Notes: generated from the sequence alone by a model not told the origin. Positions 1 to 28,493 are shown, counted from the first letter of the stretch. The stretch: DNA of 47,772 bases from Candidatus Staskawiczbacteria bacterium (GCA_049513595.1 JBEKVX010000002.1:1-47772), one strand, 5' to 3'. Numbers and translations are program-made.

Positions 1-521
1 GGAGCAGCAACAGAAGAACCATTCGCGCTTAAATTTTGCCTTTCTATTATAAAGCTATTTCCATTGACTGCTGTGACATTTCCGGAAAAAGAAAAATGCT
101 CTAAGGGATTGCCATTGTCAGTAATAGAAGTTATTGATATTGGGTTAGCAGAAATGGTTCCAAAAATTTGGATCACATCATCTGGCTTAATATCGGAAGC
201 AGAAAGATTCTGAACGTTTTTGCCGTAACCTTTGGTTATTTTAACGCTAGACGCATCTATCTTGTAGGTCATTGTTATTGCTCCTTGCACGGTAATTGTA
301 TTTCCATCAACCGCTGTTATTTTGCCCGAAGCAACTGGCCGCGCGGTTGTTGGCGTTTCGTTTTTCTTTACTGCGCTGCTGCCCCCAAACATATTTTTAA
401 GCGAATCCAATAATCCAGCTGATCCCGACTGATTATTTTTGGCTATTATCACCACTCCCAAGACCACGAAAACTACCAACAGAACTGCGCAAAGAACAAC
501 TAAAATATTTTTTTGATCCAT
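1..521 (-). CDS. Hypothetical membrane-anchored protein, C-terminally truncated by the window edge
   Basis: Absent from the ORF track because it runs off the left edge. ATG at 521 (complement). Hand translation MDQKNILVVLCAVLLVVFVVLGVVIIAKNN...GKITAVDGNTITVQG... stays open to nt 1. One N-terminal hydrophobic helix. Confidence 0.55.
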   Translation of the reverse strand, partial: MDQKNILVVLCAVLLVVFVVLGVVIIAKNNQSGSAGLLDSLKNMFGGSSAVKKNETPTTARPVASGKITAVDGNTITVQGAITMTYKIDASSVKITKGYGKNVQNLSASDIKPDDVIQIFGTISANPISITSITDNGNPLEHFSFSGNVTAVNGNSFIIERQNLSANGSSVAA

Positions 522-611: not shown

Positions 612-1514
612 TTAGAAAACCAGCAAAGCTAATCCTGCCACTATCAGAATTATGGAAACTATTTTCTGAAAAATAATTTTTTTAGATATTTCCTCCTTCA
701 AAATTTTTGGAAAGAAAATAGAAAGAAATAACGTCATTAAAAAAAGAAAAATATACTGAACGCCCCTTAAAGAATTAACTATGGGCAAAAAAGCTACCGG
801 AGCCAAAAATATTGCGAAACTCTGAAGAATGTTGGCAAGTCCGCCGGATGCTTGCGAACAAATAAAAAGTGACATTGTTTTTTTATCCAAAATGCCTTTT
901 TTTTCAAAAATTTCTTTTCTGGAGTTTCTGCTTAGAAGAAAAACCAAAGCAAATAAAAATACGAATATATTTATCCATATCAATCCCTGAAAAAACGGCT
1001 GATTGAAAAAAACAAATTTTTGAAAAACATAATTTAAGGAAAACATTAAAGAAGAAAAAATTGTAATTTTAAAATAACTGCCGGTTGCCTTGGAATTTTT
1101 TTCAAAAGAAATAATTATGCTTCCTGCTATCAACAAAATAAAAGCTAAAATGTTTGTTTTACTCATTGCCACAGCTCCGAAAAACAGCCATGTCAAAACA
1201 AAAATAAGTATCGGCTGGGTGGCTCCGATGGTTGTCATAACTTTAGAGACATCAAATTTCTCTATGGCATAAAACATTGCGTACAAACCAATGACATAAA
1301 CAAGAGCCGCAAGAATAATCCATAAAAGAGCCGCTGAGCCAGGAAAGCGAAATTTTATAAAAGGTATTAAAACAACAACCAGCACGCTCAAAACGCCTAC
1401 AAAAAAAGTGTAAGAACTTGCTTTCGGCCTGCCAGATAAAACCAGCTTATCGCCCAAATAAGCCAGAGAAAAAAACAAACAGGCAGAAGTTATTGCAAAA
1501 ATCCAGGAAATCAT
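612..1514 (-). CDS. EamA/DMT-superfamily-like permease (about 10 TM helices)
   Basis: 300-aa ORF that is hydrophobic throughout, with two similar 5-TM halves typical of EamA transporters. The family call is from overall pattern only. Confidence 0.6.
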   Translation of the reverse strand: MISWIFAITSACLFFSLAYLGDKLVLSGRPKASSYTFFVGVLSVLVVVLIPFIKFRFPGSAALLWIILAALVYVIGLYAMFYAIEKFDVSKVMTTIGATQPILIFVLTWLFFGAVAMSKTNILAFILLIAGSIIISFEKNSKATGSYFKITIFSSLMFSLNYVFQKFVFFNQPFFQGLIWINIFVFLFALVFLLSRNSRKEIFEKKGILDKKTMSLFICSQASGGLANILQSFAIFLAPVAFLPIVNSLRGVQYIFLFLMTLFLSIFFPKILKEEISKKIIFQKIVSIILIVAGLALLVF

Positions 1515-1996: not shown

Positions 1997-3049
1997 TTAT
2001 GGAGTTCCTATCACTGATGCTACATTATCAAATTTGTCCGGGTCTTTATCAACATTATTTGGGTCAATTGTTATCACTACAGAATAAGTTGTTCCTGGAG
2101 TGTAGGTAAGTCCCCAGGTGCTATACGGATAACTTACTGTTGGGCAGGATCCAGGGGTGTAAGCTCCCGACACATCAACCATTTGAGTATTTCCATTCAT
2201 TGTTATCTGTACAGGAAAAGATGTTAAGGCCTGTGTGCCGCTATTACAAAATGTTGCCTGCAAGCCAGAGGATTTCAAAATCGCGCTTCTCACCGCCATG
2301 CTGACGCCAGTTAGCGAGGGAACGGTTAGTGTGCTTGTTCCGCCTACAGGGTATACGAGCTGGCCGTGCTTGTACACATTATTGGGGTCAACAAGCGCGA
2401 CAGCGGTGAAAGTTGATCCAGGGTCAAAACTAAGCCCCCAGGTTGAATATAGCCACGTATCTGTGACGCATGCGCCTGCCTGGTCGGCTCCTGGTTCTTC
2501 AAAATCACGGTTGATGCCGTTAAGTCGGATTCTGAAAGGAGCTGTGGGAAGATTGTCTGTGCCATTATTACAGAATGTTGCGCTTACTCCATTTTGGTTT
2601 AAAACCATATTTGTTACCGACAAACTTGCCGTAATATTTGGCGTGTATGACTTCATGCAGCCATAAAGCGCCAGCAATTTTAATCTGGTATTGGTGCCCA
2701 CATTCCCTGTGCCATGAGTCAGCCCGAATGGAGCCAATATATCCTGACTGTATCTTTCCTGGAATGCCTTTACTGCTACCGCTGTGCTTTGCCCGTAAGT
2801 TCCCATTTCTCCTGAAGCAACAGCGAATCCTTCATTTGTTAATGCAAGCTGCAAACTTAATACTTGAATCTCAACCGAAGGGTCGCTTGAAGCGCCCATT
2901 TTTAAATTGGTTGATAAATTAATACAACCATATTGCGATGGATTAGAAGCTATAGGAATACCTTGAGTAACAGCGGTTTGGGCAAAGATGGCAAAGGGCA
3001 GCGCCAACAAACCAGCGGAAATAAATAAAGCAATCAATTTTTTATTCAT
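1997..3049 (-). CDS. Secreted protein with a peptidoglycan-binding-like domain and two CARDB-like repeats
   Basis: Signal peptide MNKKLIALFISAGLLALPFAIFA. PG_binding_1-like segment (VLSLQLALTNEGF...GQSTAVAVKAFQERY). Two homologous about 100-aa repeats (GVSATFCNNGTDNLPTAPFRIRLNG / GLQATFCNSGTQALTSFPVQITMNG, each ending ...DPNNV). Confidence 0.65.
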   Translation of the reverse strand: MNKKLIALFISAGLLALPFAIFAQTAVTQGIPIASNPSQYGCINLSTNLKMGASSDPSVEIQVLSLQLALTNEGFAVASGEMGTYGQSTAVAVKAFQERYSQDILAPFGLTHGTGNVGTNTRLKLLALYGCMKSYTPNITASLSVTNMVLNQNGVSATFCNNGTDNLPTAPFRIRLNGINRDFEEPGADQAGACVTDTWLYSTWGLSFDPGSTFTAVALVDPNNVYKHGQLVYPVGGTSTLTVPSLTGVSMAVRSAILKSSGLQATFCNSGTQALTSFPVQITMNGNTQMVDVSGAYTPGSCPTVSYPYSTWGLTYTPGTTYSVVITIDPNNVDKDPDKFDNVASVIGTP

Positions 3050-3215: not shown

Positions 3216-3542
3216 TTAATGGGTTGCTGGCAAATGGGTTGCTGGCACGCAATTACTATCAACAGCGCATTGGCTTATCCCTATGCCGGGTAAAACCACG
3301 CATTTTTGATTGACGCACTGCGTGTGGGTTGTTGGTGTTGCCAACACGCAATTGCCATTAGTAGAACATTGATTTTTCCCAGCACCGGCTACAACAACAC
3401 ATTTTTGATTAACACATTGCATGTGGGTCGACAGGGGAAAAGAAAGAGCTGCCGAATTTATTTTGTTATCAACCAGCATGCCTACAACAAAACACAAGAC
3501 AGCTATCACCACAATAACTATTATTAAAAGGGACTTTTTCAT
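3216..3542 (-). CDS. Small membrane-anchored Cys-rich repeat protein
   Basis: N-terminal TM helix followed by two copies of the unit QCVNQKCVV.(A/P)G.G..QC....NCV.AT. Confidence 0.5.
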   Translation of the reverse strand: MKKSLLIIVIVVIAVLCFVVGMLVDNKINSAALSFPLSTHMQCVNQKCVVVAGAGKNQCSTNGNCVLATPTTHTQCVNQKCVVLPGIGISQCAVDSNCVPATHLPATH

Positions 3543-3736
3543 ATTGTTTTATTTTTTGCCTTTTAAATAAACAAATTTAGCTGTTAATGGCGAAAATTGT
3601 TTTTTTAATAAGTGCTATAAATTACTTAATTATAAGTCCGCATAAAAAGATGTCAATATCTGTTTTTTTGGGTTTATTGACATCCATAAATTAAATAAAA
3701 ATATAGCCCAAAAAGCCGACCTAAGCTCAAATATTA

Positions 3737-4108
3737 CTATTTTAGCCGCTCGCGCACCCTGTTTACCACATCTTCAATTTTCCAATCAGTTTTGATAAGA
3801 TATTCTCCGAGTCCGTCCATAACTTCTAAGGCCTTCGAGATATCTGTCGGAGAGCTTAAATTGGTCAATATAATTACCGGAGCATGCTTGCCCCATTCAT
3901 CCTGCCTTAATTTTTTAAGCATAGTAAGCCCATCCATTTTAGGCAAAAGGATATCAAGCAATATCAAGTCCGGTTTTGCGGACAACGCAGAAGCAAGGCC
4001 TTCCTCTCCATCCCCCGCTTTTATAATTTCGAATCCTTCTTTGGTAAGATTGTCTGCGAGAGTTGAAAGCAAAATAGGGTCATCCTCCACGATTAAGATT
4101 TTTTTCAT
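3737..4108 (-). CDS. Stand-alone response-regulator receiver (CheY-like, no output domain)
   Basis: KILIVEDD...DLILLDILLPKMDG...PVIILTNL...K pattern (acidic pocket, phospho-Asp, T/S, K). 123 aa. Confidence 0.9.
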   Translation of the reverse strand: MKKILIVEDDPILLSTLADNLTKEGFEIIKAGDGEEGLASALSAKPDLILLDILLPKMDGLTMLKKLRQDEWGKHAPVIILTNLSSPTDISKALEVMDGLGEYLIKTDWKIEDVVNRVRERLK

Positions 4109-4120
4109 AAGTATGGTTTT

Positions 4121-5911
4121 TTATTTTTTAATTTTTTCGACTCCTTTTTTAAGATATGATTCCATTTTTGTAATATTTTCCCGAAGCCGCTTGAGGGCAT
4201 ATTCATCATCTGAGGTGGCCGCGGTTTTAAAGGCCTCTAAAAGTTTTTCGACATCATCTTCGATAAGCTTAAATATTTTTGTAATTTCTGACCCGGTAAA
4301 TTCCACCCGTAATGCCAGCTTTTGTTGTCTCTTCTTATAAAACCATACTCCGCCTCCGAATCCTATCACTAATATCAAAAGCAAAAGCAAGGCGGCGCCG
4401 CCAGCTCCAAGCTGAAACGACCCTATCTGAATTATGGGTTTTTCTGTAACTTGTATTGTTTCTGACTTGACAGGAATACTCAATGCTCCTCTCGCATCTT
4501 GGGCGGCAGCAAAAATATTATAATCTCCAGTTTTTAACGGAGAGTCAATCTTCATTGCCCAGACGCCTTTTTCGTCGGCATTTGTTGTGAAAGAATAAAT
4601 TAAATTATTTTTTTGGTCTCTAACTTCTAAAATTATTGATATATTGGGCAATGATGTCCCATTTATAACCAGCCCTCCTTCTCCTGCGAATACGTTGGTA
4701 GTTACTGAAAATATTTTAGGTGACTCTATCGGTAAAATTTCAAACTGCGCCGTGCTTTCAACTTTGTTGCCGGCTTTATCCTGGGCTCCGACCTTGATTG
4801 TATGCTTTCCCGGTTTCTGCGGGGGCAAGGTGTAGGACTTTGAATTAACATTGACCATCTCGTTCGAATCTATCTGAATATAATAATGGTCTATCCCCGA
4901 AAGCTGGTCATTTGCCTGATAAGTAATAACCGGCGTTGGATTATTTGAAGACAGGCCGTCAGAAAATTTAATATCAAAAGTAGAAGGCGGAACAGTGTCT
5001 ACTGCTATGCGATAATGATTGGTTTCGCCGCATCCTATATTGTTGCAAAACCTGACATTTAAATACCAGACGCCATCTGAAAGCGCTGAAAATGTTTGGT
5101 TATCAAAAATACCCGCTGATGTTGTGGGCTCAAATGACGGGTCTTTATCCAAATCAGTAGCAACGGCGCTTACATCTTTTGGAAGCTGCCAGTTTGCAGA
5201 AAATTTAGAAGAAGTATTATACCACTTGGCTGGGTCTGGATATAATGGAACTATCACAGCTGGCTTTGCCGGACCTGTGTCTGATGTAATCGGTGTTCTT
5301 TCAATTGTTTGAACCTGCGCAGCGCTGGCAGTTGCGGCGGAAGCAACAGTTATGGTGCTTTTGTTCATTGCAGAAAGCACATTAGTGCCGCTGCCATCTG
5401 ACGCAGTCACCGCCCCATCAGTAAAAATAAGGTCTGACTGGCCCAAACCCTTTGCTTTAAAAACAACTCTTATCACCTGAAGCGATTTTCCAAGCAAACC
5501 GCTGGCCGAGCCGCCAATAAAAGTTATTTGTCCGGCAGTATTGTCAAAGGTTGGGTCTTGAATCCAAAAATTAAAGACAGAACTGGTCTTATCAATGCTC
5601 ACAACCTGCAAGATGGCGGGAGAAAATTTAATTGTTGCCTGAGCCGCATTTACTCCAACATCTTCGCTGTCAATTTTTATATCAGCATTAAATTGGTCTC
5701 CAACCTTATAAGTATCTTTAGCTGTGTTAATGCTTAAAGTCGCGCCGCTCTGGGCTGGCCCGGTTTGTCCTGCTGGAACTGACCCGGTTAAAGCTGCTGG
5801 TTGGAATAATAAATCACCGGGCATCGCGTATCTGACAAAAACAAAAACAATAATCGCTAGTAAAATAATTGATAAAATAATTCCGGATTTTTTGGAAAAA
5901 TTAAATTTCAT
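4121..5911 (-). CDS. Bitopic membrane protein with a cohesin-like module
   Basis: N-terminal helix GIILSIILLAIIVFVFV. Cohesin-like segment TYKVGDQFNADIKIDSEDVGVNAAQATIKFSPAILQVVSIDK...GKSLQVIRVVFKAKGLGQSDLIF. C-terminal TM AALLLLLILVIGFGGGVWFY plus an about 65-aa charged tail. Confidence 0.7.
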   Translation of the reverse strand: MKFNFSKKSGIILSIILLAIIVFVFVRYAMPGDLLFQPAALTGSVPAGQTGPAQSGATLSINTAKDTYKVGDQFNADIKIDSEDVGVNAAQATIKFSPAILQVVSIDKTSSVFNFWIQDPTFDNTAGQITFIGGSASGLLGKSLQVIRVVFKAKGLGQSDLIFTDGAVTASDGSGTNVLSAMNKSTITVASAATASAAQVQTIERTPITSDTGPAKPAVIVPLYPDPAKWYNTSSKFSANWQLPKDVSAVATDLDKDPSFEPTTSAGIFDNQTFSALSDGVWYLNVRFCNNIGCGETNHYRIAVDTVPPSTFDIKFSDGLSSNNPTPVITYQANDQLSGIDHYYIQIDSNEMVNVNSKSYTLPPQKPGKHTIKVGAQDKAGNKVESTAQFEILPIESPKIFSVTTNVFAGEGGLVINGTSLPNISIILEVRDQKNNLIYSFTTNADEKGVWAMKIDSPLKTGDYNIFAAAQDARGALSIPVKSETIQVTEKPIIQIGSFQLGAGGAALLLLLILVIGFGGGVWFYKKRQQKLALRVEFTGSEITKIFKLIEDDVEKLLEAFKTAATSDDEYALKRLRENITKMESYLKKGVEKIKK

Positions 5912-5929
5912 GGTTGAACCATTTTAACT

Positions 5930-8900
5930 TTATTGTATTCGAAGGGTTCTGATAAAAATACTGAAGTCCGAAGCGTCTACTTTTCCATCACCATTGAGAT
6001 CGTCAAGCAATCTTGTTGCCGGGTCTGTTGAAAGCCAGTGCGCAAGAAAAATACTCCAGTCGCTTATATCTATTTTACCATCATTGTTGAAGTCCGTCTT
6101 GGGAACAAGAAGATTTGTGGTAAAGAAAACTTTTTGCGGAGAAAATTCGCTCTGCACTCCGTCAAAAGTAACCTGGCGGGCGCGTATTGTGTGGCTGCCA
6201 ATATCTAATAAAGCTGTGTTGTAAAGATATTTGTAAGACCCGTCGGTTCCAGCCGTTATGTCTGCGGCAATCAGTTGCCCGTCAACTTCAATTAATAATT
6301 TGCTTGACGGAGCTGCATATCCGACAACTGCCAAAAAATCTCCTTTTGTTATGGTTGGACGCGGGAATCCAATTGTTGGCGATACGATAATATTATTTAC
6401 TTCCAGCACGGAATCTGCATTAAGCAAATTCAAATCATAAACTTTGCTTTGGGCGATGCGGCCGTCCTTGTCTTGAACCAACAAAGCAAAAGCCCTGGCT
6501 CCGACAGACAAACCAGTAAATGTTATTTTAAAACTTCCGTCGCTAGAAGAAGCAGCGCCTTGCTTAATAACATTTTCAGTTGCTGTAACTGCTGCTATGC
6601 TTAAATTTGCCCCAGGATAAGCTCTGCCAGAAAAAGAAACTCCTCCAACTGGAGGCGCGTAGCCGCCACTCATACCGCCTATAAAAACTGGCGGCGACGC
6701 AGAAAAATTTATTTGAGCTGCAGAGCTGACATCTAATCCAGTTGTTTGCGTATCGGACAAAGACAATAAAACTATTTCAGCGGTGGCATCGTTAATTTGA
6801 ATTGTTCCTACTCCATTTATAATATTTACAAGCCCTGCGCCAGTTGCCGTGCCGCTGGTATTTAATGTGACTCCAGTTTGATAGGTCGTGTCAATATTGC
6901 TATTTGCATCTTCTGCTTGCACAACAACGCTTGCTGGTACTCCGATTTGGCTGGCGTCAGGACTTAAAATCACAAAACGCGTAGCCACAATCGGAATAGT
7001 GCTTACAGTTACAGAGTCCGCATCGTCGGCAACCCCTGCATTGCCATTGGGAGTTGGGGTGCTGTCTGAAACAGTAATAATCCATGTTCCCGGCGTCTCG
7101 TCATAATACCAAAAGTTGGCAGATGAATGCCCGTCATCAACAGGAATGGAGGTTACAGCGAGCCCTCCTGTTGCGCTGTCATAAAATTTTGCGTTTGCTC
7201 CAGTTGAAGAAGTGTAAAGATAAACAAGAGTAACTCCTGCTGTAACCGGGTTTCCAAACTGGTCTTGCCTGCTTACCGTGTACTCTAATCTTGTGCTGGC
7301 TGTCATATCTCCCGGATTATTTAAAATAAATTTTGCGACAGGCCCGGCTGACACTGTCACTGAATCCGATATATCGGCAATTCCTGCCGGGCCGTCTGGA
7401 GCCGTAGAATTATCAGAAACCACAACGCTTGCTGTTTCAGCTTTTTCATCGTAATACCAGAACTGGGCTGAAGAATTTCCATCAGTAATGTTTACAAAAG
7501 TAATTACGCTGCCTGAGCTTGCCGAGTCATAGAATTTTTTAGTAATTGCCGAGGGCAATCCATAAAGATAAACTGTTGTAGCTCCGCCTGTGACAAGGTT
7601 TCCAAATTGGTCTTTGCGGGTAACAGTATATCCCAAACGAGTTCCAGCTGACATGTCTCCAGGATTATTTATAGCAAATTGAGCAACAGCTCCGGTTGAA
7701 AAAATAATGCTTGCAGTAGAGCTAACGTTTAAATTAGTAGTTTGCGAATCGGTCAAACTCAAGTTGACTGTTTCTGCAGCAGTGTCTCGGATATTCATTG
7801 TTCCCACGCCATTTGCGATAGGCACTAATCCCCCGCCAGTGCCAGAACTTGTGTTTAATGTGACGCCAGTTTGAATAGTAGCATCAACATTTCCATTTGC
7901 ATCCTGCGCTTGAATTGTTACAGAAACCGGGGCGTCAACTGTTCCGTTTCCCGGATTTAAGATAACATATCTGGTGGCAACAATTGGCGCGGCATTCACC
8001 ACAACGGCATCTGTTCCATCTGTTATGCCGTTTATCCCGCCGGGAGCTGCAGAATTATCAGAGGCAGTAATTGTGTAAGTTCCCGGCGTCTCGTCATAAT
8101 ACCAAAAGTTGGCCGAAGAATTTCCATTAGCAATAGTTATTGAAAGAATGACGTTTCCATTAATTGACGCATCATAAAAAGCAAGCGGTCCGGGGGAATT
8201 GCTGTATAAATAAACTACGCTATCGCCGCTTGTTACTAAGTTATTAAACTGGTCTCGCCTGCTTACCGTGTATCCCAGCCGCGTGGCAGCTGTCATATCT
8301 CCAGGATTATTTAAAATAAATTTTGCAACAGGCCCGGCCGTAACTGCAAGGGAATCTACGCCATCTGTTATGCCGTTTATCCCGCCGGGAGCCGAAGGAT
8401 TATCAGAGGCAGTAATAGAATATGTCCCTGGCGCTTCGTCATAATACCAGAAGTTGGCAGCTGATTGTCCGTCAGCAATAATTATTGAAGTGATAATATT
8501 TCCGCTGGTTGCTGCATCGTAGAATTTTTTATTAGCGCCCGACGAAGTAGAATAAAAATATACCGTGGTCGCTCCAGCAGTAGTCAAATTATTGTATTGG
8601 TCTTTGCGGATAACAGTATATTGAGCCCTTGAACCAGCTGCCAAAGTTACCGGATGAGAAAGAACGAATCGGGCAGTCGCGCCGCCGGCAAAAACAACTG
8701 GCTGGGTTGATGAAACATCCAATCCGGTAGTTTGTGAATCAGTCAAAGATAATGTAATTGTTTCTGCAACTGTATCTGAAATATTTTTAGTGCCTACTCC
8801 ATTAATAATATTTACCAAGCCGCCGCCAGTTGCCGCACCAGTTGTGTTTAACGTAACGTCATTTTGATAATTTGTATCTACGCTATTATCCGGCTTCTGC

Positions 8901-10495
8901 GCTTGAACAGTTATTACAGCAGGAGCATCTACTGTTATATTAGTTGCTGGCAGAATAACAAATTTTACTGCAACTGGATTGACAATAACAGAGTCCGTTC
9001 CATCTGCAATGCCAGTGGCTCCATCGGGAGCTGAAGAATTGTCAGAAGCAGTTATTGTATAAGTTCCCGGCGTCTCGTCGTAATACCAAAAATTAGCCGA
9101 AGAATGCCCCGATGTAATGCCAATTGAAGTGATAATATTTCCGCTGGTTGCTGCATCATAAAACTTTTTACTGGAACTTGTTGATGATGTGTATAAATAT
9201 ACAGTGCTTGACCCGGAAGTGACTAAATTTCCAAATTGGTCTTTTCTGGTAACGGTATAGCCCAATCGTGTCTTTGCATACATATCCCCTGGATTGTTTA
9301 AAGAAAATTGTTTAACAACTCCAGCAGAAAACACAACATCTTGAGTGGAGCTTACATTTAATCCCGTACCCTGAGTATCAGACAAAGATAAATTAACTGT
9401 TTCGGCTACCGTGTCAGAAATATTTTTAGTGCCAACTCCGTTTATAATATCAACCAATCCTGCGCCAGTAGCAGAACCTGAAGCAACAAGGGTTACGTCT
9501 TGCTGATAACTGGTGTCAATTGAATTGTCGGTTCTTTGGGCTTGGACTGTAACAGTAATCGGAGCGTCAACCGTGCCATCTGTCGGATTTATAATTACAA
9601 ATTTACTTATCGCAGGATTGACCGTCAAAACCTGGGCATTGGATGTTCCTCCGCCAGGAGTCGGGTTAGTTACAGTGATGTTAAATGTTCCTGCAGTTGT
9701 TAAGTCAGAAGTTAAGATGGCTGCTGTCACCTGGGTTGAGGAAACATAAGTTGTTGCGCGCGCCGAGCCGGCAAAGTTGACAACAGAAGAGGAAATAAAG
9801 TTGGTGCCATTGACCGTGAGGGTGAAGCCCGAGTCGCCTGCTGTTTTGCTGGTTGGAGAAATGCTGGTTGTGGTCGGCAATGGGTTGTTTAAAGTATAAG
9901 TAACAGTAATAGTCACGTCATAGACGCTAACAACTTCTCCTGGCTGTCCAGTTCCATTTTTTGTATATTGTAAAATTACTCCAAAATTACTATTGCTTGC
10001 AATATCGGTCTGGGCTAAACCCGCGCTCCATGTGTCCGCAGCGCCGCCATAGGTCTGAACTTGATGCCCATGAGTGCCTGATGCAGCTTTATTACTGCCA
10101 ATCAAGGTGGACCCGTCTTTGGTCAATTGAACCAGATTATCTATAGTTTTATTATTGCTGCTGCCCCAATCAACAGCCACACTTATGCCATTGATTGTTG
10201 CTCCAGCTGGAATATCCGAACTTGTAAAACCAAAATTCGTCAGTGCAAGTTTAGTTGATGTGTTTCCGTTGCTAGGCAACGCCGCAGTAGCCGCATCAGA
10301 TGTGTTGCTTCCGGCAGCACGGCTTGGATTTGTCCAGGTGGCTGTTCCACCCCCTTTGTCTGTTGCTGTCCCGGCATATTTTGCAGAAGTGCTGGCAGCT
10401 TCTATATTTAATATTGGCAAAACAAAAAAAGCGAGCGCAAAAATACTCGCTATTAAAAACGGCGCGCAGCGTTTTTTATTTAAATGTTTTTCCAT
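5930..10495 (-). CDS. Giant secreted repeat (adhesin-like) protein with a C-terminal dockerin
   Basis: 1521-aa ORF with a signal/TM helix, an IPT/TIG-like module, and alternating Big-like (about 95 aa) and about 115-aa modules. The C-terminus carries two dockerin Ca-loops, DFNNDGKIDISD and DLNGDGKVDASD. Confidence 0.85.
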   Translation of the reverse strand: MEKHLNKKRCAPFLIASIFALAFFVLPILNIEAASTSAKYAGTATDKGGGTATWTNPSRAAGSNTSDAATAALPSNGNTSTKLALTNFGFTSSDIPAGATINGISVAVDWGSSNNKTIDNLVQLTKDGSTLIGSNKAASGTHGHQVQTYGGAADTWSAGLAQTDIASNSNFGVILQYTKNGTGQPGEVVSVYDVTITVTYTLNNPLPTTTSISPTSKTAGDSGFTLTVNGTNFISSSVVNFAGSARATTYVSSTQVTAAILTSDLTTAGTFNITVTNPTPGGGTSNAQVLTVNPAISKFVIINPTDGTVDAPITVTVQAQRTDNSIDTSYQQDVTLVASGSATGAGLVDIINGVGTKNISDTVAETVNLSLSDTQGTGLNVSSTQDVVFSAGVVKQFSLNNPGDMYAKTRLGYTVTRKDQFGNLVTSGSSTVYLYTSSTSSSKKFYDAATSGNIITSIGITSGHSSANFWYYDETPGTYTITASDNSSAPDGATGIADGTDSVIVNPVAVKFVILPATNITVDAPAVITVQAQKPDNSVDTNYQNDVTLNTTGAATGGGLVNIINGVGTKNISDTVAETITLSLTDSQTTGLDVSSTQPVVFAGGATARFVLSHPVTLAAGSRAQYTVIRKDQYNNLTTAGATTVYFYSTSSGANKKFYDAATSGNIITSIIIADGQSAANFWYYDEAPGTYSITASDNPSAPGGINGITDGVDSLAVTAGPVAKFILNNPGDMTAATRLGYTVSRRDQFNNLVTSGDSVVYLYSNSPGPLAFYDASINGNVILSITIANGNSSANFWYYDETPGTYTITASDNSAAPGGINGITDGTDAVVVNAAPIVATRYVILNPGNGTVDAPVSVTIQAQDANGNVDATIQTGVTLNTSSGTGGGLVPIANGVGTMNIRDTAAETVNLSLTDSQTTNLNVSSTASIIFSTGAVAQFAINNPGDMSAGTRLGYTVTRKDQFGNLVTGGATTVYLYGLPSAITKKFYDSASSGSVITFVNITDGNSSAQFWYYDEKAETASVVVSDNSTAPDGPAGIADISDSVTVSAGPVAKFILNNPGDMTASTRLEYTVSRQDQFGNPVTAGVTLVYLYTSSTGANAKFYDSATGGLAVTSIPVDDGHSSANFWYYDETPGTWIITVSDSTPTPNGNAGVADDADSVTVSTIPIVATRFVILSPDASQIGVPASVVVQAEDANSNIDTTYQTGVTLNTSGTATGAGLVNIINGVGTIQINDATAEIVLLSLSDTQTTGLDVSSAAQINFSASPPVFIGGMSGGYAPPVGGVSFSGRAYPGANLSIAAVTATENVIKQGAASSSDGSFKITFTGLSVGARAFALLVQDKDGRIAQSKVYDLNLLNADSVLEVNNIIVSPTIGFPRPTITKGDFLAVVGYAAPSSKLLIEVDGQLIAADITAGTDGSYKYLYNTALLDIGSHTIRARQVTFDGVQSEFSPQKVFFTTNLLVPKTDFNNDGKIDISDWSIFLAHWLSTDPATRLLDDLNGDGKVDASDFSIFIRTLRIQ
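6700..9620 (-). repeat. Intragenic tandem module repeats (super-repeat of about 985-993 nt)
   Basis: The 35-nt string gttcccggcgtctcgtcataataccaaaagttggc occurs identically at 7086-7120 and 8079-8113. A copy with 3 mismatches lies at 9063-9097. Protein modules recur (PGTYTITASDNS..., ATR(F/Y)VIL.P...). Confidence 0.85.
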
Positions 10496-10500
10496 AGAAG

Positions 10501-10908
10501 TTATTTTTCTGATTTTTTAGGACTGCCCTTGGCCGTTTTTCTGCCCTCAAGATAATCTTTAACTTTTTCAATTACTTCTTCAATCGGATGCTGGGATTTT
10601 ACAAAATAGTCATCAGCGCCCAGCTCCATTGCCCGTTTGATTGCCGTATCTTCTCCAAGATTTGACAGAACAATTACTGGAATTAATTTCCATTTGGGAT
10701 TTTTTTTCAATTCCTCTAACACATAAAAGCCGTCCTTTTTGGGCATTAAAAGGTCAAGCAAAATAATGTCTGGCTTCTTTTTTCCTACTTTTTCAATCGC
10801 CTCCTCGCCATCTTTGGCAACATCAACCGTGCAGCCATCTGCGGTTAAATTATCTTTAAGCGCCTGAACTAAAAAATCTTCGTCTTCGGCAATTAATATA
10901 TTATTCAT
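10501..10908 (-). CDS. Stand-alone response-regulator receiver (no output domain)
   Basis: NILIAEDEDF...DIILLDLLMPKKDG...PVIVLSNL...GADDYFVK. 135 aa with a short basic tail. Confidence 0.9.
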   Translation of the reverse strand: MNNILIAEDEDFLVQALKDNLTADGCTVDVAKDGEEAIEKVGKKKPDIILLDLLMPKKDGFYVLEELKKNPKWKLIPVIVLSNLGEDTAIKRAMELGADDYFVKSQHPIEEVIEKVKDYLEGRKTAKGSPKKSEK

Positions 10909-10937
10909 CTTTTGTTTTATTAATTTTAATTATTTTA

Positions 10938-12884
10938 TTATATTATTTTATCATTAACTTTTGGCAGACGCAAGTAGAAGGTTGTCCCTTTATTTTCTTT
11001 TGATTCAAATGAAATTTTTCCGCCAATCTTTTCAGCCAGCATCTTTGCAATGCTAAGGCCCAGTCCAGAACCTCCGGGTTTAAACGCTTTGGCATTTGAG
11101 GCGCGATAAAATCGTTCAAACAATTTTTTCTGTTCTTCTTCGGGAACGCCTATGCCGTTGTCTTTTACAGAAAATACTACGGCGGCTTTTTCTTCCTGCA
11201 CATCCAAAATAACTTCCTGTCCCGGATTAGAATAATTAATGGCGTTTGAAATAAAACATTCAAGAATGCTTTTAACAATCTCTTGATTTGTTTGGAATGC
11301 AACGTCTTTGTGATTTTTAAGATTACTCTGCAAAATAATTTTCCTGCTCTTTGCCGCAGCCATCATTGAGACAGAAATATCTTTATAAAGATTTGAAATG
11401 AAAACTGTTTCTTTTTTTATGGGACCTGATTCGCTCTCAAGGCGCAAGACACCCAGCATTTCAGAAACAAGCTGGATCATTCGTTCATTCACCTGATAAA
11501 TCTGGTCAAGATATTTTTTTTGTTTCGGATTAACCGCGCCGAGTATCTTTCTTTGAATAGTTTCAATAAGCCACTTAGTCCCAGAAAGAGGAGTCCTTAA
11601 TTGATGAGAGGCAAGGGACAAGAAGTCCGTTCGCAATTTTTCCTGTTCTTTTTCTTTGGTCATATCTCGAAAAATATCAACAGCTCCAATGATTTTATTT
11701 TCTATTACCACCGGAGTAACAGTTATAGCGACTGGAAATGCGGCTCCATTTTTTCTGGTGTAAAAGTAAGACGGACCGGCAGTAGTAGTAGTAGTTTTAC
11801 CTTTAAGAGCAACGGCTATCGGGCGTTTTTCTTCCGGCACCGGATTTCCTTTCTCATCCAATACTTTCCATGCATTAACAAGCAATTTACCAACCACTTG
11901 CTTGGCGCTCAAGCCCAACATTTGTTCTGCCGCATGATTCATAAGTATAATTTTCCCATCTTTATCAACTGCAGCCACGCCTTCGCCAATGCTCTGCAAC
12001 AATGCTTCATCTTTGGCATTAGTATCGGCAAGCGCTTCTTTCTCAACCCGAAGGTCCTCAAGAACATTTTGGACAGCTATCTTCTCATTTTCTAAATCCT
12101 GTGTCCGGTCACGCACCTTTTCCTCCAGCCCCGCATAAGATTCTTTTAATTTTTGTGTTGTACTTTTCAGCTCGGTAATATCTCTTGCCGCGGCGAAGAC
12201 ACCAAGAATTTTTCCTCTATCGTCTTTGTAGACCGCAGCATTGTAAAGAACATCTGTTAGTTTGCCGTCCTTACGTTTAATGGTTAATGGATAATTTGAA
12301 ACAAATCCTTTGGTAAATACCTGCTGGTAACCTTCCCTCGCTTTTTCCGGTTCTGTGAAGTAATTTGAAAAGTCGGTTCCTATGAGTTTTTCTTTAATTA
12401 TGCCTCTGATTTTTGCGGCAGCTTCGTTGGCGTCAGTAATTTTGCCCTCTTGGCTGATGGTTACAAGCGGGTCGAGCGATGCCTCTATGAGAGAACGGTT
12501 GTAGATAGCAGATAAACGGAGTTTTTTTATCTGTTTTTCATTCCTTCGGCGGTAAAGCTCAGCCACCACGCTTATTAATATGCCCATAATAATAAACAGC
12601 GCCATCCCTATAGCATCGGCCGAATTCTGGAATGTAAATATCCCTCGCGGCGGCAAAAACCAATAATCAACAATAAGCGCGGAAGTCACGGTAGTTAATA
12701 TGCCCGGCCCTAACCCCCCGAACATTGCCGCGAACATTATAAGGGGATAGAAAGTAATGTAAGTAGCCAAGTCCGGTCCCGTAAAGTGTGTAATTGCTAC
12801 ACGCAAAAAAAATCCTATGCCAGTCGCCACCAGCGCAAATCCGTAGGATATGAAGCGACTCCTTAATTTTACGACATTCGACAT
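10938..12884 (-). CDS. Sensor histidine kinase (DUF4118-like TM region, PAS segments, HisKA, HATPase_c)
   Basis: H-box LASHQLRTPLS, N-box NAINYS, G1 DNGIGV, G2 GGSGLGLSI. The N-terminal 4-TM block resembles the KdpD membrane domain. Confidence 0.9.
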   Translation of the reverse strand: MSNVVKLRSRFISYGFALVATGIGFFLRVAITHFTGPDLATYITFYPLIMFAAMFGGLGPGILTTVTSALIVDYWFLPPRGIFTFQNSADAIGMALFIIMGILISVVAELYRRRNEKQIKKLRLSAIYNRSLIEASLDPLVTISQEGKITDANEAAAKIRGIIKEKLIGTDFSNYFTEPEKAREGYQQVFTKGFVSNYPLTIKRKDGKLTDVLYNAAVYKDDRGKILGVFAAARDITELKSTTQKLKESYAGLEEKVRDRTQDLENEKIAVQNVLEDLRVEKEALADTNAKDEALLQSIGEGVAAVDKDGKIILMNHAAEQMLGLSAKQVVGKLLVNAWKVLDEKGNPVPEEKRPIAVALKGKTTTTTAGPSYFYTRKNGAAFPVAITVTPVVIENKIIGAVDIFRDMTKEKEQEKLRTDFLSLASHQLRTPLSGTKWLIETIQRKILGAVNPKQKKYLDQIYQVNERMIQLVSEMLGVLRLESESGPIKKETVFISNLYKDISVSMMAAAKSRKIILQSNLKNHKDVAFQTNQEIVKSILECFISNAINYSNPGQEVILDVQEEKAAVVFSVKDNGIGVPEEEQKKLFERFYRASNAKAFKPGGSGLGLSIAKMLAEKIGGKISFESKENKGTTFYLRLPKVNDKII

Positions 12885-12888
12885 AAAA

Positions 12889-13455
12889 TTATTTTTTCTT
12901 CAACTCTTCTATTTCTTTTTTGAGTTCCACCATTTTTAATTCTCTTCCAACCATGGTCTTATTCAGCGCTTCCAATTCTTTTATTCGCTCGCTAAGCTCT
13001 TTTGTCTGTTCTTCAACCTTAAGCGCAAGCATTTTCTCGTGCTCGGCTACTTTTTCCTCAAGCTCCTTTCTGACAGTTGCATCTTCTATGGACAGGATAA
13101 TCAACTGCACCGTATCTATCTGCCTGGCATTAAGCAGCATGGTTTTTTTGCCGATTGTTTCAAAAACGTGCGTAACCTCAAAATCTTTGACAACTTTTTT
13201 ATTAGGCAAAATATCTTCCAGCAATTTTCTAAGCTCAGGGATATTCCACTGGCCGTTTCCTAATTCATAAAGCAATACATTTTCTGTTTGTTTTGGCAAA
13301 ACCTGAAAGTTATTATAAAAAACTTCGTTTGCCGAAATTACCCGGAAATCGCGGTCAAGGATTAAAAATGACTCTCTGGAAACCTCTACCAGCGTTTTCA
13401 TATAATGCAGAGCTGCTTCCCTATCGTCTTTTGCTGCGGATTTATTATTTTCCAT
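12889..13455 (-). CDS. PAS-domain protein with a C-terminal coiled coil
   Basis: LGNGQWNIPELRKLLEDILP...FEVTHVF..IGKKTMLLNARQI is a PAS fold pattern common in CheR/HK-linked sensors. The tail MVGRELKMVELKKEIEELKK is a coiled coil. Stop lies 4 nt before the kinase start. Confidence 0.6.
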   Translation of the reverse strand: MENNKSAAKDDREAALHYMKTLVEVSRESFLILDRDFRVISANEVFYNNFQVLPKQTENVLLYELGNGQWNIPELRKLLEDILPNKKVVKDFEVTHVFETIGKKTMLLNARQIDTVQLIILSIEDATVRKELEEKVAEHEKMLALKVEEQTKELSERIKELEALNKTMVGRELKMVELKKEIEELKKK

Positions 13456-13574
13456 TTTTTATATTTAAGATTGATAATTTATGATTGATGATTTAAATCT
13501 GCAATCTTAAATCTAAAATCTTAATTTTTTAATCTTTTTATTTATTATATCATAAAATTAAAAATGCAAACAAG

Positions 13575-13600
13575 AAATCGCCTAAACGGCGATTTTAAAA
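13575..13600. terminator. Hairpin terminator
   Basis: aaatcgcc-taaac-ggcgatttt, downstream of the 13634 gene on the minus strand. Confidence 0.6.
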
Positions 13601-15451: not shown

Positions 15452-16672
15452 ATGTCCACAATCGCGGCTAATGCGAATCCGAGGTTAGATGCGTTGAGAA
15501 TTGACCTTGACAAAACAGACCGGCACATCGTCGGCCTAATGTCAAAAAGGCTCGGCCTGGTCCGCAAGATTGAAGCCGTAAAGTTTGCTAACGGTGAACC
15601 CGTCCTGGTGGAGAAAACCGAACAAGAAAAGTTGGACCGGCTGGCTGCATTCGCAAATGAAAAAGGTCTAAGCATTCCTTTCGTAAGAGGCCTTTTTTAC
15701 AGCTTGTTCTCAGAATCCTGCCGGACCCAGACAAAGCAAAGAGACCAAAGGGACGAGCAGGCATCTGCGGCTGAAGACGAAGAGACGAGATATAAAAGAT
15801 TGAAACAAAATCTTTTAGATCTCACTGAGTTGCTTGTGCCCGAATACAAAGGCACTTACAAACTTTCCTCTTTCGGGACAATTTCGTACTTGGACTTTGA
15901 GCTCGACGCCATAAAGACCCAGGTCAGCACGCTAGCATCTATGGGAAACACCAAGCTGGCAATCGATTTGGGATGTGGCGTCGGAATCGTATCCCTGAGC
16001 GAACATGTAACCCCGTTTTTCGAGCAGGTTAGAGGGTTTGACATCAGCCCCCACATGATAGGCCAGGCGCTCTGGATCAGGAATCTTACTCAAGGAGACG
16101 CCATGCGCGCGTCCTTTGAAGTTCTTGACATCGAGAAAAGATTGCCGCTGGAAGATGGCTCTGTTTCTTTCGTGGCAATGACGCTAGGAACAGCCAGCGA
16201 CGTCAAGAACATCCGAAAGGTTTTGGCATCAATAAGGAGGGTGCTGAATAAGGACGGCCGGTTTGTTCTTTCTTTCTACAACAGTGCTGCGCTGTTTTAC
16301 CGCTGGTCTCTGCCATGGGAAGTCAATCTGATGGCGGAGATAAATCCAACAGACCACTGCCTGGATGTCCACGTTGGAGGCAGGGTCTTCCAACTTTATG
16401 CCAGGCCATACACTGTCAGAGAGGTCAAAAAACTTCTGGCAGACGCGCAACTGCATGTTTCATCCGTCTCTACGTATCCTGCTTTAGCCGCCATCATGCC
16501 AAACGAATTGTTCTATGGCGTAGATGAGGCTCAAAGAGCGTCGCATCGCAAGGAAGTTCAAGCGGCTCTGCTGCAGGAACAAGAAACGAAAAGAACAATC
16601 CAGCGGATTGACAAGGGGCTGGCCGGTTCGGACATGGGCGCGTATATTCTAGTTACGGGCAGGAAAACTTGA
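15452..16672 (+). CDS. Chorismate mutase (AroQ-like) fused to a class I SAM-dependent methyltransferase-fold domain
   Basis: N-terminus LRIDLDKTDRHIVGLMSKRLGLVRKIEAVK... is the CM_2 helix pattern. C-terminus has motif I AIDLGCGVG and FDISPHM. SD AAGGAG lies 7 nt upstream. Confidence 0.75.
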   Translation: MSTIAANANPRLDALRIDLDKTDRHIVGLMSKRLGLVRKIEAVKFANGEPVLVEKTEQEKLDRLAAFANEKGLSIPFVRGLFYSLFSESCRTQTKQRDQRDEQASAAEDEETRYKRLKQNLLDLTELLVPEYKGTYKLSSFGTISYLDFELDAIKTQVSTLASMGNTKLAIDLGCGVGIVSLSEHVTPFFEQVRGFDISPHMIGQALWIRNLTQGDAMRASFEVLDIEKRLPLEDGSVSFVAMTLGTASDVKNIRKVLASIRRVLNKDGRFVLSFYNSAALFYRWSLPWEVNLMAEINPTDHCLDVHVGGRVFQLYARPYTVREVKKLLADAQLHVSSVSTYPALAAIMPNELFYGVDEAQRASHRKEVQAALLQEQETKRTIQRIDKGLAGSDMGAYILVTGRKT

Positions 16673-28185: not shown

Positions 28186-28215
28186 AAATATTTTTGTTAA
28201 CTTACAGTATTAAAA

Positions 28216-28482: not shown

Positions 28483-28493
28483 AAATTTATTTT

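Follow-up and report, generated by a model that had tools for sequence, protein, structure and literature searches.

The window analysed here, the whole 47,772-nt (47.8-kb) stretch of DNA from a Candidatus Staskawiczbacteria bacterium, contains an operon of six genes on the minus strand (Table 1). The open reading frames, their shared direction and the gaps between them match exactly the description given in the initial annotation. In the order of transcription they encode a PAS-like protein, a sensor histidine kinase, a stand-alone receiver, a giant protein ending in a dockerin, a membrane anchor carrying a cohesin and a second stand-alone receiver. Upstream, a terminator-like hairpin at 13595-13575 (consensus match only) corresponds to the end of the preceding unit, and the AT-rich promoter-like stretch with TGATATAAT is likely to be the start of the operon. 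A perfect sigma-70-type promoter lies 3′ of the final receiver gene; the next transcription unit starts there, and the operon therefore ends before it. A scan with family HMMs returned exactly one cohesin and one dockerin in the entire window.

Table 1. Features of the six-gene operon and its borders (coordinates counted from the first nucleotide of the window)
Feature	Coordinates	Strand	Basis or remark
Operon	13455-3737	-	Six genes, gaps 4, 29, 5, 18 and 12 nt
Upstream terminator-like hairpin and AT-rich promoter-like stretch with TGATATAAT	13540..13595	-	Scan, consensus matches only
PAS-like protein, 188 aa, cytoplasmic, coiled-coil-like C-terminal tail	12889..13455	-	First gene of operon
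Sensor histidine kinase, 648 aa, DUF4118-PAS-PAS-HisKA-HATPase_c	10938..12884	-	Pfam and TM scan
Stand-alone receiver, 135 aa, class A	10501..10908	-	Response_reg 87.9 bits
Giant secreted protein, 1521 aa, putative docked cargo/fibre	5930..10495	-	ORF and domain architecture
N-terminal distal "tip" domain, aa ~35-202	9890..10393	-	No family assignment
IPT/TIG-like "choice-of-anchor Z" PGGG domain, aa 205-292	9620..9883	-	NCBIfam NF058597
Nine tandem modules A-B-A-B-B-A-B-B-A, aa 298-1266	6698..9604	-	BLASTP of seed units
Conserved proximal "stalk", aa ~1280-1460	6116..6658	-	Common to all relatives' giant proteins
C-terminal dockerin, aa 1467-1518	5942..6097	-	Pfam Dockerin_1
Membrane anchor, 596 aa	4121..5911	-	AlphaFold model pLDDT 79; full-length homologues 42-80% identical
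Single cohesin, aa 58-189, membrane-distal end of anchor	5345..5740	-	Pfam Cohesin and fold
Beta-sandwich ectodomain, aa ~215-500	4412..5269	-	Big_13 40.8 bits; model pLDDT 80-95
C-terminal TM helix, aa ~503-525	4337..4405	-	Hydropathy scan; continuous helix 503-560 in model
Cytoplasmic helical tail, aa 526-596 (~70 aa)	4124..4336	-	Proposed contact point for signalling proteins
Stand-alone receiver, 123 aa, class B	3737..4108	-	Last operon gene; Response_reg 78.2 bits
Sigma-70-type promoter TTGACA-16-TATAAT	3629..3656	-	12/12 consensus matches

The giant protein begins with a hydrophobic signal sequence and an AxA-type site (IEA/AS). Its tip domain has no match in Pfam, NCBIfam or among PDB sequences, few homologues span it, and the same searches found no adhesin-type ligand-binding domain in it. 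The following domain is recognized by NF058597 (CoaZ repeat, 103.5 bits for a cut-off of 30) and its homologues annotated as IPT/TIG number in the hundreds; the related model NF041540 ("GC-type dockerin-anchored") scores below threshold on the giant protein (24 vs 29). The tandem modules comprise four A units of ~97 aa and five B units of ~113 aa, with copies sharing 57-70% identity, and they match no Pfam family above cut-off, no Ig family and no PDB sequence. Thus, of the giant Ig-repeat protein put forward in the initial annotation, the tandem repeats stand and the Ig identity finds no family match, aa 205-292 being the only IPT/TIG-like part. The dockerin that had been noticed at its C-terminus is recovered by Pfam well above cut-off (Dockerin_1, 36.9 bits vs 22.9, E=4e-9), and a family-specific HMM gives it 111.7 bits as the sole match within the window. 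Its two EF-hand-like Ca2+ loops DFNNDGKIDISD and DLNGDGKVDASD are canonical, both presenting D/N at positions 1, 3, 5, 9 and 12, and each leads into a near-identical helix (SDWSIFLAHW and SDFSIFIRTL). Matches to PDB sequences are weak (E ~4e-4 to 1e-2) and correspond to dockerins, including 4fl4_A and 2vn6_B, and to EF-hands. Seven of the ten giant proteins examined in relatives reach the Dockerin_1 cut-off, and that of locus L044 falls just under it (21.1 bits).

The anchor is made, in this order, of a signal/anchor helix, the cohesin, about four beta-sandwich domains, a TM helix and a cytoplasmic helical tail. The module first described as cohesin-like is a cohesin by both sequence and fold. 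It scores above the Pfam gathering threshold (PF00963, 37.1 bits vs 24.1, E=4.4e-9, profile positions 2-139 of 139), and the same family appears in the precomputed annotation of many anchor homologues. Its AlphaFold model (aa 51-200, pLDDT 91.7) has ten strands, for a cohesin fold defined as a nine-stranded beta-sandwich (jelly roll), and the best 50 Foldseek matches in the PDB are all cohesins, with E values down to 1.9e-9 and TM scores of 0.6-0.8. These matches cover types I, II and III as well as non-cellulosomal cohesins and include the type II complexes 5k39 and 5m0y; the non-cellulosomal cohesins 2vo8 and 2xdh rank near the top by structure (TM 0.78-0.79). An alignment of relatives revealed invariant residues in the central domain of the ectodomain (W230, W241, N290, N291, G293, D305 and P309). 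In other giant proteins, this central domain is also repeated in tandem, 13-42 times. The TM helix is followed by KKRQQK, consistent with the positive-inside rule.

All relatives belong to Patescibacteria, the closest ones being found in Staskawiczbacteria/Paceibacterota, which confirms that this tiny-genome bacterium is a member of the CPR. At E<=1e-30, 2661 cluster representatives match the anchor, and some of them are not full-length; the best 150 of these 2661 are mostly full-length, with ~560-610 aa. In 77 of the 78 assessable species-level loci, the gene immediately before that of the anchor encodes a protein with the same stalk and a terminal dockerin, and the phmmer query STALK matches this upstream gene in relatives' loci. 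The gap between the two genes ranges from -44 to +88 nt in most loci and reaches 315 nt in L072; L016 has an anchor and no adjacent dockerin gene. As the identical order recurs across ~80 species, this gene arrangement is not due to chance. The dockerin-ended genes vary from 420 to >3300 aa with a constant stalk plus dockerin terminus. Only the C-terminal ~250 aa can be aligned among relatives, and the N-terminal, distal regions are wholly different, being unrelated even among close relatives. The cohesin (46% mean identity among relatives) and the dockerin (47%) are the best-conserved parts of their respective proteins; the stalk averages 31%. The tail, at 25%, shows the lowest conservation within the anchor; it is present in all relatives, with a conserved C-terminal motif K-x-x-x-Y-x-x-x-x-I. 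A mirror-tree analysis gave r = 0.51 for cohesin and dockerin and also 0.51 for a control domain and the dockerin, hence no signal beyond shared phylogeny. Judging from sequence, the most likely arrangement is that a huge variable surface protein plugs by its dockerin into the cohesin of a conserved membrane anchor.

A previous study suggested a "cellulosome-related cluster" for an OD1 genome (Kantor et al. 2013), and the two modules described here are a true cohesin and a true dockerin, which would be in line with a cellulosome-like degradation of polysaccharides, the anchor recruiting dockerin enzymes encoded elsewhere. We give this explanation next to no credence, as the anchor has one cohesin and there is no multi-cohesin scaffoldin, the window has no second dockerin, and the conserved neighbours are signalling genes and not enzymes. 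Moreover, the glycoside hydrolase reported as missing in the initial annotation is indeed absent: no GH, CE, PL or CBM was detected in the window's giant protein or in those of ten relatives, and these eleven proteins consist of Ig/FN3/TIG/YDG/BNR-type modules plus the dockerin only. With neither a glycoside hydrolase nor a CBM, the unit is therefore not a cellulosome. For the genes in view, the cellulosome is largely refuted.

In cellulosome producers, cohesin-bearing anchoring scaffoldins tether large complexes to the envelope. By the same logic, the dockerin-ended protein could be the main structural protein of a surface layer or wall, tethered by the cohesin anchor, and the role of the two-component genes would be limited to tuning how it is expressed or assembled. 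A structural role would agree with the very wide distribution of the anchor family across Patescibacteria, with the single cohesin-dockerin pair usually found in the loci examined, and with a cargo that carries no enzymes and consists of beta-sandwich modules. However, the length of the cargo spans an eight-fold range and its distal domains are unrelated in close relatives, so that a fibre or adhesin fits better than a lattice-forming protein. In addition, the receivers have no DNA-binding domain, and direct transcriptional control is therefore not encoded at the locus. We thus consider a structural envelope role improbable.

Regarding the signalling genes, the 188-aa protein has no TM segment in our scan and its Pfam match is just short of the cut-off (PAS_4, 21.6 vs 23.1 bits; PAS_9, 17.7 bits); the gene initially called a PAS protein is thus confirmed and its Pfam assignment is not. 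Small PAS proteins likewise come first in the cassette of loci L005, L006, L043, L069, L074 and L082. The assignment of the next gene to a DUF4118/PAS histidine kinase is borne out by Pfam, with DUF4118 (68.7 bits), two PAS domains, both cytoplasmic, HisKA (44.9 bits), whose H-box reads SHQLRTPL, and HATPase_c (94.1 bits). Three TM segments with short loops were detected in its DUF4118 membrane module, and neither Pfam nor the TM scan revealed a large extracytoplasmic loop or an extracytoplasmic sensor domain. The class A receiver possesses the acidic pocket E8 D9, D52, S82 and K104, and the class B receiver keeps D9 D10, D52, T82 and K105. A kinase with a HisKA H-box and a HATPase_c domain and receivers with the phospho-acceptor Asp are thus all present. 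As initially noticed, both receivers contain Response_reg only (Pfam and NCBIfam), and neither has the DNA-binding or enzymatic output domain of a classical response regulator.

The linkage of such genes to the cohesin-dockerin pair, proposed from the window, is conserved in relatives: histidine kinase or receiver genes adjoin the pair on the same strand in all 48 species-level loci with both flanks visible. Their densities (kinase/receiver) are 0.29/0.42 per kb within 1.5 kb of the pair and ~0.01 per kb at 5-7.5 kb, a 25-40-fold enrichment beside the pair. Their placement is fluid, being upstream, downstream or on both sides. The receivers, 120-160 aa each, fall in two recurring classes, A (75 of the 106 clustered) and B (31 members), and class A genes are positioned after the upstream kinase or directly behind the anchor gene. 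Among 52 neighbouring kinases, 20 are cytoplasmic, 15 are membrane-bound without a large loop and 17 have a loop of at least 80 aa. Kinase input architecture therefore varies and receiver and anchor are constant, as is commonly seen where a variable input feeds a conserved output. In loci L076, L080 and P0197, a cytoplasmic PAS domain (PAS_9, 55-62 bits) located after the TM helix replaces or extends the anchor tail. No kinase or receiver gene is found in the visible flanks of these three (the upstream side of L076 is unseen and the downstream side of L080 covers ~1 kb), and the three fusions may share a single evolutionary origin.

Gene adjacency could reflect co-regulation instead of physical contact. 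A shared promoter or regulon, with signalling proteins that never touch the anchor, would account for the operon-like spacing of 4-29 nt and for the fluid order of the signalling genes, common for functionally linked genes whose products do not interact. It would leave aside the PAS-anchor fusions of three relatives, devoid of kinase and receiver genes in their visible flanks, and the lack of an output domain in receivers for which no other conserved neighbour in the relatives' loci could be the target. We hold this explanation to be very unlikely.

Taken together, our results suggest that the six genes probably form a surface-display unit, a fibre or adhesin docked by cohesin and dockerin, joined to a phosphorelay, with inside-out control as the favoured direction. 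Without an output domain, the receivers would have to work by way of a protein target, and this target would be the cytoplasmic tail of the anchor, their co-conserved partner; these two features together are the reason why inside-out control is favoured. The giant protein would be exported by Sec and its dockerin would then bind the cohesin in a Ca2+-dependent manner, each anchor holding one fibre beyond the cell wall. Its distal part is wholly different between species and is therefore proposed to be the functional tip, most likely binding the surface of a host or a substrate. On the inner side, the variable kinase inputs would result in a phosphorylated class A receiver, which, once bound to the anchor tail, might alter the clustering of the anchor, its position or its hold on the fibre, and the class B receiver might be a second branch or a phosphate sink. 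The initial reading of a docked fibre or adhesin coupled to a phosphorelay is thus supported, with docking, adhesion and coupling as its predicted steps, and the linkage of the pair to kinase and receiver genes suggests a signal-controlled attachment device, not a cellulose-degrading machine.

A close alternative is outside-in signalling, where contact of the fibre, or load on it, is reported to the kinase. Docked fibre and anchor would then constitute an extracellular antenna or mechanosensor acting through the single-pass anchor on the PAS protein and the kinase, and the receivers would act on targets other than the anchor, type IV pili or cell division for instance. This would be consistent with the kinase of the window having no extracytoplasmic sensor domain, as well as with the 35 of the 52 neighbouring kinases that have no large outside loop, the fusion of a PAS domain to the tail of three relatives' anchors and the small PAS and coiled-coil protein encoded by the first gene of the operon. 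Conversely, the other 17 kinases have a large extracytoplasmic loop and can therefore sense outside signals unaided, and signalling through a single TM helix would additionally require oligomerization. Finally, the PAS-fusion anchors show no kinase domain in their visible flanks to take up a signal, and the tail thus fits better as a receiver of input than as an emitter of output. Both the antenna itself and receivers directed to other targets seem to us rather unlikely.

More tentatively, the cassette could possibly be a bidirectional, integrin-like adhesion organelle of Paceibacteria/ABY1-type CPR bacteria, with a hypervariable host-binding fibre, a cohesin-dockerin joint holding it on a single-pass anchor, and a cytoplasmic tail targeted directly by the phosphorylated receiver or by the fused PAS domain. 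If this were true, the cell could switch host attachment on and off post-translationally, the cassette would be the first in which a phosphorelay controls a cohesin-dockerin system, and it would represent a main host-range determinant in these episymbionts.

Output-less receivers that bind a protein target once phosphorylated are exemplified by CheY, PilH/PilG and DivK. As in these regulators, the phospho-acceptor Asp, the Thr/Ser and the Lys are retained in both receivers of the operon; unlike them, no chemotaxis, pilus or cell-cycle partner genes are present nearby. We know of no precedent for the tail of a cohesin anchor as a receiver target. To our knowledge, the only well-known coupling of cellulosome-related surface modules to transmembrane signalling is RsgI/SigI of C. 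thermocellum, a biomass-sensing system in which anti-sigma factors with extracellular CBM sensors control transcription. It differs in that the sensor has no cohesin-dockerin joint and no two-component proteins are involved. A working analogue of inside-out control is the Lap system of Pseudomonas fluorescens, where the giant adhesin LapA is retained or released by signalling through the transmembrane receptor LapD and the protease LapG (PMC3032545, PMC3032553). As proposed for the present unit, Lap holds its giant repeat adhesin at the surface by means of a dedicated partner and controls display by a cytoplasmic signal that travels outward through a membrane protein; the two are not homologous. 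Lap relies on c-di-GMP, a GGDEF/EAL/HAMP receptor, a periplasmic protease, type I secretion and an outer-membrane plug, whereas the present unit, in a cell lacking a typical outer membrane, would combine Sec export, kinase-receiver phosphotransfer and a cohesin-dockerin joint. Accordingly, Pfam and NCBIfam searches of the six proteins found no LapD-like GGDEF/EAL domain, LapG-like protease or type I retention module.

The unit appears undescribed apart from the 2013 remark on a "cellulosome-related cluster". Cohesin-dockerin pairs outside cellulose degradation have been reported (Peer et al. 2009, cited in PMC9012536). Examples are the glycoside-hydrolase toxin complexes of C. perfringens (2vo8, 2jh2, 2w1n), Archaeoglobus fulgidus (2xdh), the Ruminococcus bromii amylosome and ANME archaea. 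They resemble the present pair by the lack of a multi-cohesin scaffoldin and by proposed roles in surface assembly or cell-cell interaction, and differ from it in joining enzymes or proteins of unknown role. For none of them has a TM-anchored single-cohesin protein with a cytoplasmic signalling tail been reported, nor have conserved two-component neighbours. The unit is a novel form of cohesin-dockerin surface display. In C. (Acetivibrio) thermocellum, the anchoring scaffoldins SdbA, OlpB and Orf2p bind the C-terminal type II dockerin of CipA. The predicted arrangement is similar in that a very large modular protein is displayed non-covalently, its C-terminal dockerin being held by a cohesin on a cell-bound anchor. 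Unlike these scaffoldins, which use SLH domains, the anchor uses a TM helix and a cytoplasmic tail; it has one cohesin only, its cargo contains no cohesins, enzymes or CBM, and the whole unit is genetically tied to kinase and receiver genes in a CPR bacterium.

The cassette comprises genes for a PAS-like protein, a histidine kinase (HK), a receiver (REC), the giant secreted protein that ends in a dockerin, the membrane anchor that carries a cohesin, and a second receiver. ORF calling confirmed that these six genes are co-directional with gaps of 4, 29, 5, 18 and 12 nt, as described in the initial annotation, and they look like a single transcription unit, since in addition to the short gaps a terminator-like hairpin and a promoter-like stretch precede the first gene and a promoter follows the last one. 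Another terminator-like hairpin with a T-run lies within the signal-peptide codons of the giant gene (10430-10451, minus strand); this hairpin probably results from the Phe/Leu-rich codons there, but it could attenuate read-through from the receiver gene into the giant gene. Pfam searches assigned DUF4118, two PAS, HisKA and HATPase_c domains to the 648-aa kinase and Response_reg alone to the 135- and 123-aa proteins, while the PAS_4 match of the 188-aa protein was sub-threshold (21.6 vs 23.1 bits). In both receivers the residues of the acidic pocket, the phospho-acceptor Asp, Thr/Ser and Lys are intact, and no output domain was found in either with Pfam or NCBIfam. The Dockerin_1 domain of the giant protein (residues 1467-1518; 36.9 bits, cut-off 22.9) and the Cohesin domain of the anchor (residues 58-189; 37.1 bits, cut-off 24.1), which also matches Big_13, were recovered where they had initially been placed, and an HMM scan of the 47.8 kb revealed no second cohesin or dockerin elsewhere in the window.

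Positions of the features in the window (nucleotides, or residues where marked aa) and of the PAS-fused anchors in related loci
Feature	Position	Strand	Remark
PAS-like protein, 188 aa	12889-13455	-	cassette, ORF call
Histidine kinase, 648 aa	10938-12884	-	cassette, ORF call
Receiver, 135 aa	10501-10908	-	cassette, ORF call
Giant protein, 1521 aa	5930-10495	-	cassette, ORF call
Anchor, 596 aa	4121-5911	-	cassette, ORF call
Receiver, 123 aa	3737-4108	-	cassette, ORF call
Terminator-like hairpin	13595-13575	-	5' of first cassette gene; consensus match only
AT-rich promoter-like stretch with TGATATAAT		-	5' of first cassette gene; consensus match only
Perfect TTGACA-16-TATAAT promoter	3656-3629	-	3' of last cassette gene; consensus match only
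Unassigned tip domain	aa ~35-202		giant protein
IPT/TIG-like 'choice-of-anchor Z' domain	aa 205-292		giant protein; NCBIfam NF058597, 103.5 bits
Stalk	aa ~1280-1460		giant protein
108-aa protein	3216-3542	-	N-terminal TM/signal helix; directly downstream of cassette, behind promoter 3656-3629
Secreted 350-aa protein	1997-3049	-	PG_binding_1 at cut-off, CARDB-like repeats
Chorismate mutase type II + SAM methyltransferase	15452-16672	+	unusual fusion
PEP-utilising mobile domain, two separate proteins	19046-21286 and 32023-33111	-	
Phosphoribosyltransferase + PNP_UDP_1 phosphorylase	24574-25983	-	unusual fusion
Shedu SduA_C protein	27124-28185		65.4 bits
DUF4145 protein	28494-29126		defence-like block 27124-29758
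RnlA-DBD-like protein	35201-35821		second defence-like block
Trypsin_2 peptidase	35827-36558		second defence-like block
Fused HSDR_N + N6_Mtase/Eco57I methylase	36581-38524		second defence-like block
LexA	38538-39209		behind the HSDR_N + N6_Mtase/Eco57I fusion
PAS-fused anchors	L076:1756-3678; L080:5193-7124; P0197		PAS_9, 55-62 bits

The giant protein starts with a signal sequence, and its repeat region comprises nine tandem modules of types A and B, arranged A-B-A-B-B-A-B-B-A. Both calcium loops of its dockerin are canonical and the helices are near-duplicates (SDWSIFL and SDFSIFI). The tip, the A/B repeats and the stalk had no PDB sequence match below E = 0.1, and Pfam, NCBIfam and PDB sequence searches yielded no recognisable ligand-binding family in the tip. 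The C-terminal 251 residues retrieved only nine short proteins and the N-terminal 263 residues mostly generic IPT/TIG domain matches.

The full anchor was modelled using AlphaFold (22 homologues in the alignment, pLDDT 79). In the model a hydrophobic helix at the N-terminus is followed by the cohesin and about four more beta-sandwich domains; from residue 503 a helix crosses the membrane and runs on into the cytoplasm, and a second helix reaches the C-terminus. Because the KKRQQK motif comes right behind the hydrophobic stretch, the final ~70 residues are predicted to be intracellular. As PDB sequence matches of the cohesin module were insignificant (E around 0.2 only), a fold comparison was needed. 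The search with the full-length model was dominated by generic multi-Ig/FN3 chains and was repeated with the isolated cohesin region (pLDDT 91.7), whose 50 best PDB fold matches were all cohesins, including the non-cellulosomal ones of C. perfringens (2vo8) and A. fulgidus (2xdh). Together with the Pfam score above cut-off, this result bears out the cohesin identity of a module first described as cohesin-like. The anchor ectodomain is itself modular, since variants among the homologues have an insert of the bacterial SH3 domain SH3_3 (P0174, P0184, P0188), an N-terminal PA14 in place of the cohesin region (P0191) or N-terminal extensions of ~300 aa (P0226, P0260, P0261). The central beta-sandwich domain that is most conserved in the anchor spans profile positions ~245-380 and has an invariant W, N-N-x-G and D-x-x-x-P. 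It is a widely used, unnamed repeat module, as 13 to 42 tandem copies of it occur in other giant proteins such as P0130 (4269 aa), P0273 (5271 aa), P0180 and P0257.

Among 1.84 billion cluster representatives, a profile search yielded 2661 anchor matches at E<=1e-30, and among the best 150 of them most are full-length (~560-610 aa). Overall, the anchor has hundreds of full-length homologues with 42-80% identity, all from Patescibacteria where named. Scanning one genome per GTDB species yielded 80 anchor loci, with E-values that are relative to the candidate stretches only. At all loci ORFs were called and then searched with the proteins of the window, the calls running to the first possible start codon, so that small overlaps are artefacts. 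Many named Patescibacteria lineages share the conserved cassette: the loci are titled Staskawicz-, Wolfe-, Azam-, Jorgensen-, Niyogi-, Colwell-, Nomura-, Yonath-, Uhr-, Magasanik-, Buchanan-, Giovannoni-, Nealson-, Ryan-, Adler- and Harrisonbacteria, some TPA MAG records being titled uncultured Saccharibacteria or Gammaproteobacteria instead. A gene encoding the stalk and a terminal dockerin lies directly upstream of the anchor gene in 77 of the 78 loci with upstream sequence, the exception being L016, where HK-REC takes its place; at L020 a receiver gene separates the dockerin-ended gene from the anchor gene. Module identity and this conserved adjacency suggest that the dockerin binds the cohesin, and the giant protein is thus likely to be docked and displayed through this contact. 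In a mirror-tree comparison of 71 pairs, the cohesin-dockerin distance correlation (r = 0.51) equalled that of a control domain with the dockerin (0.51), and the partial correlation given the stalk was 0.08. Two tandem giant-anchor pairs occur on one contig (L063, 8223-11687 and 15865-19789), whose sequence is partly N-masked and whose anchor ORFs are split.

The dockerin-ended proteins upstream of the anchor are 420 to 2737 aa long when complete and exceed 3300 aa even when truncated, and the N-terminal parts of the relatives' giant proteins are mutually unrelated. In ten of these proteins the domains found were Ig/FN3/TIG/YDG/BNR-type modules and Dockerin_1 alone, with neither an enzyme nor a CBM domain among them, which agrees with the initial remark that no glycoside hydrolase accompanies the pair. 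With one cohesin and no scaffoldin, dockerin-bearing hydrolase or CBM in view, a cellulosome was rejected, and the comparative data argue against a cellulosome-type reading of the cassette. Such clusters had earlier been taken as a sign of cellulose degradation (PMC3812714); the cassette corrects that view, which affects metabolic inferences from CPR genomes. Architecture and hypervariability point to the giant protein as a putative adhesin.

The association of the pair with signalling genes recurs in the relatives. Both flanks are visible at 48 species loci, and at all of these the pair is directly adjoined by one or more HK, REC or PAS genes of the same strand. HK/REC ORFs occur at 0.29/0.42 per kb in the 1.5 kb nearest the pair, thin out to 0.011 per kb at a distance of 5-7.5 kb and are absent farther out. 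Two arrangements predominate, HK-REC-giant-anchor and giant-anchor-REC(-HK-REC), and at some loci, including the window, signalling genes stand on either side. The receivers form two clusters: class A, similar to the product of 10501-10908, is encoded either upstream of the giant gene, behind the kinase, or immediately downstream of the anchor, and class B resembles the product of 3737-4108. Anchor tails with 'SE.TKIF' go with upstream signalling genes and those with 'QRDV' with downstream ones, an apparent correlation in which phylogeny and the imperfect delimitation of the motif classes are confounding factors.

Three anchors from different assemblies carry a PAS domain ~50 residues past the TM helix, one of them (P0197) representing a separate 50%-identity cluster. 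In each case the giant and anchor genes are a two-gene unit; in P0197 the order is CCA-adding enzyme, opposite-strand gene, 819-aa dockerin protein, anchor-PAS and arginase. No HK or REC gene was found in their visible flanks (for L076 the downstream side only; for L080 with ~1 kb downstream). Sequence comparison rejected the fused PAS as an orthologue of the stand-alone PAS protein of the window, and its similarity to PAS2 of the window kinase is only generic. Separate signalling genes flank every unfused anchor with both flanks visible, whereas none were seen beside the fused ones, and this pattern is the strongest argument that signalling may work through the cytoplasmic tail of the anchor. 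The three fusions may trace to a single event, so that the pattern counts as one observation and not three. As far as sequence analysis reaches, the initial interpretation of the cassette is supported, and we consider it fairly probable that the giant protein is docked and displayed on the anchor under the influence of a phosphorelay.

The direction of this coupling can be proposed only tentatively. Two-component systems usually feed variable inputs into a conserved output. In the cassette the receiver and the anchor are constant while the input architecture of the neighbouring kinases varies, and the fused PAS is an input-type module; for these reasons we favour inside-out control, in which varied kinase inputs would feed a conserved output made of receiver and anchor, and the receiver would act on the cytoplasmic tail. 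Outside-in sensing, by which contact of the fibre would be reported inward to the kinase, is ranked below it by a modest margin. The 52 kinases beside the pair comprise 20 cytoplasmic ones, 15 membrane-bound ones with short loops and 17 with a loop of at least 80 aa, and the idea that all of them are devoid of an outside sensor domain was thus rejected. If the link from receiver to anchor is true, cohesin-dockerin pairs would serve in regulated display as well as in static assembly.

For host recognition and attachment by CPR/Patescibacteria, type IV pili are to our knowledge the sole widely cited device so far. The cassette is a second candidate host-attachment device, widespread among Patescibacteria lineages, and the hypervariable tip of the giant protein is an obvious candidate determinant of host specificity. 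Cohesin-dockerin pairs outside cellulosomes occur in all three domains of life, and those of ANME archaea are proposed to mediate cell-cell contacts, according to the part of PMC9012536 that cites Peer et al. 2009. The best functional analogy is the Lap system, in which the cell controls the display of a giant adhesin from within (PMC3032545, PMC3032553); a Lap-type system was rejected, as none of its defining domains is present in the cassette. In the literature found, there is no report of a cohesin-dockerin pair tied to a phosphorelay, the cassette is undescribed for CPR/Patescibacteria beyond one sentence in PMC3812714, and neither cohesin/dockerin nor two-component systems come up in a 2026 review of the phylum. 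What is new for cohesin-dockerin surface display is the combination of a TM-anchored single-cohesin holder that has a putative cytoplasmic signalling tail with a cargo that is hypervariable and non-enzymatic, and with a dedicated kinase and receivers that lack an output domain.

Other genes of the window deserve mention. The 108-aa protein downstream of the cassette bears a duplicated Cys-rich motif (H.QCVNQKCVV..G.G..QC....NCV.AT) and had no family match, and the 350-aa protein with a peptidoglycan-binding domain is another envelope protein near the cassette. One of the two proteins with a PEP-utilising mobile domain also has a PPDK_N ATP-binding domain, and neither looks like a complete pyruvate phosphate dikinase. 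A second defence-like block (33838-39209) includes an unassigned 460-aa ORF. The first one (27124-29758), with an unassigned 207-aa ORF, lies beside a tRNA-Asp/Met/Met cluster (29918-30173), and an SduA_C gene is also located near the cassette on the contig of the closest relative (L006).
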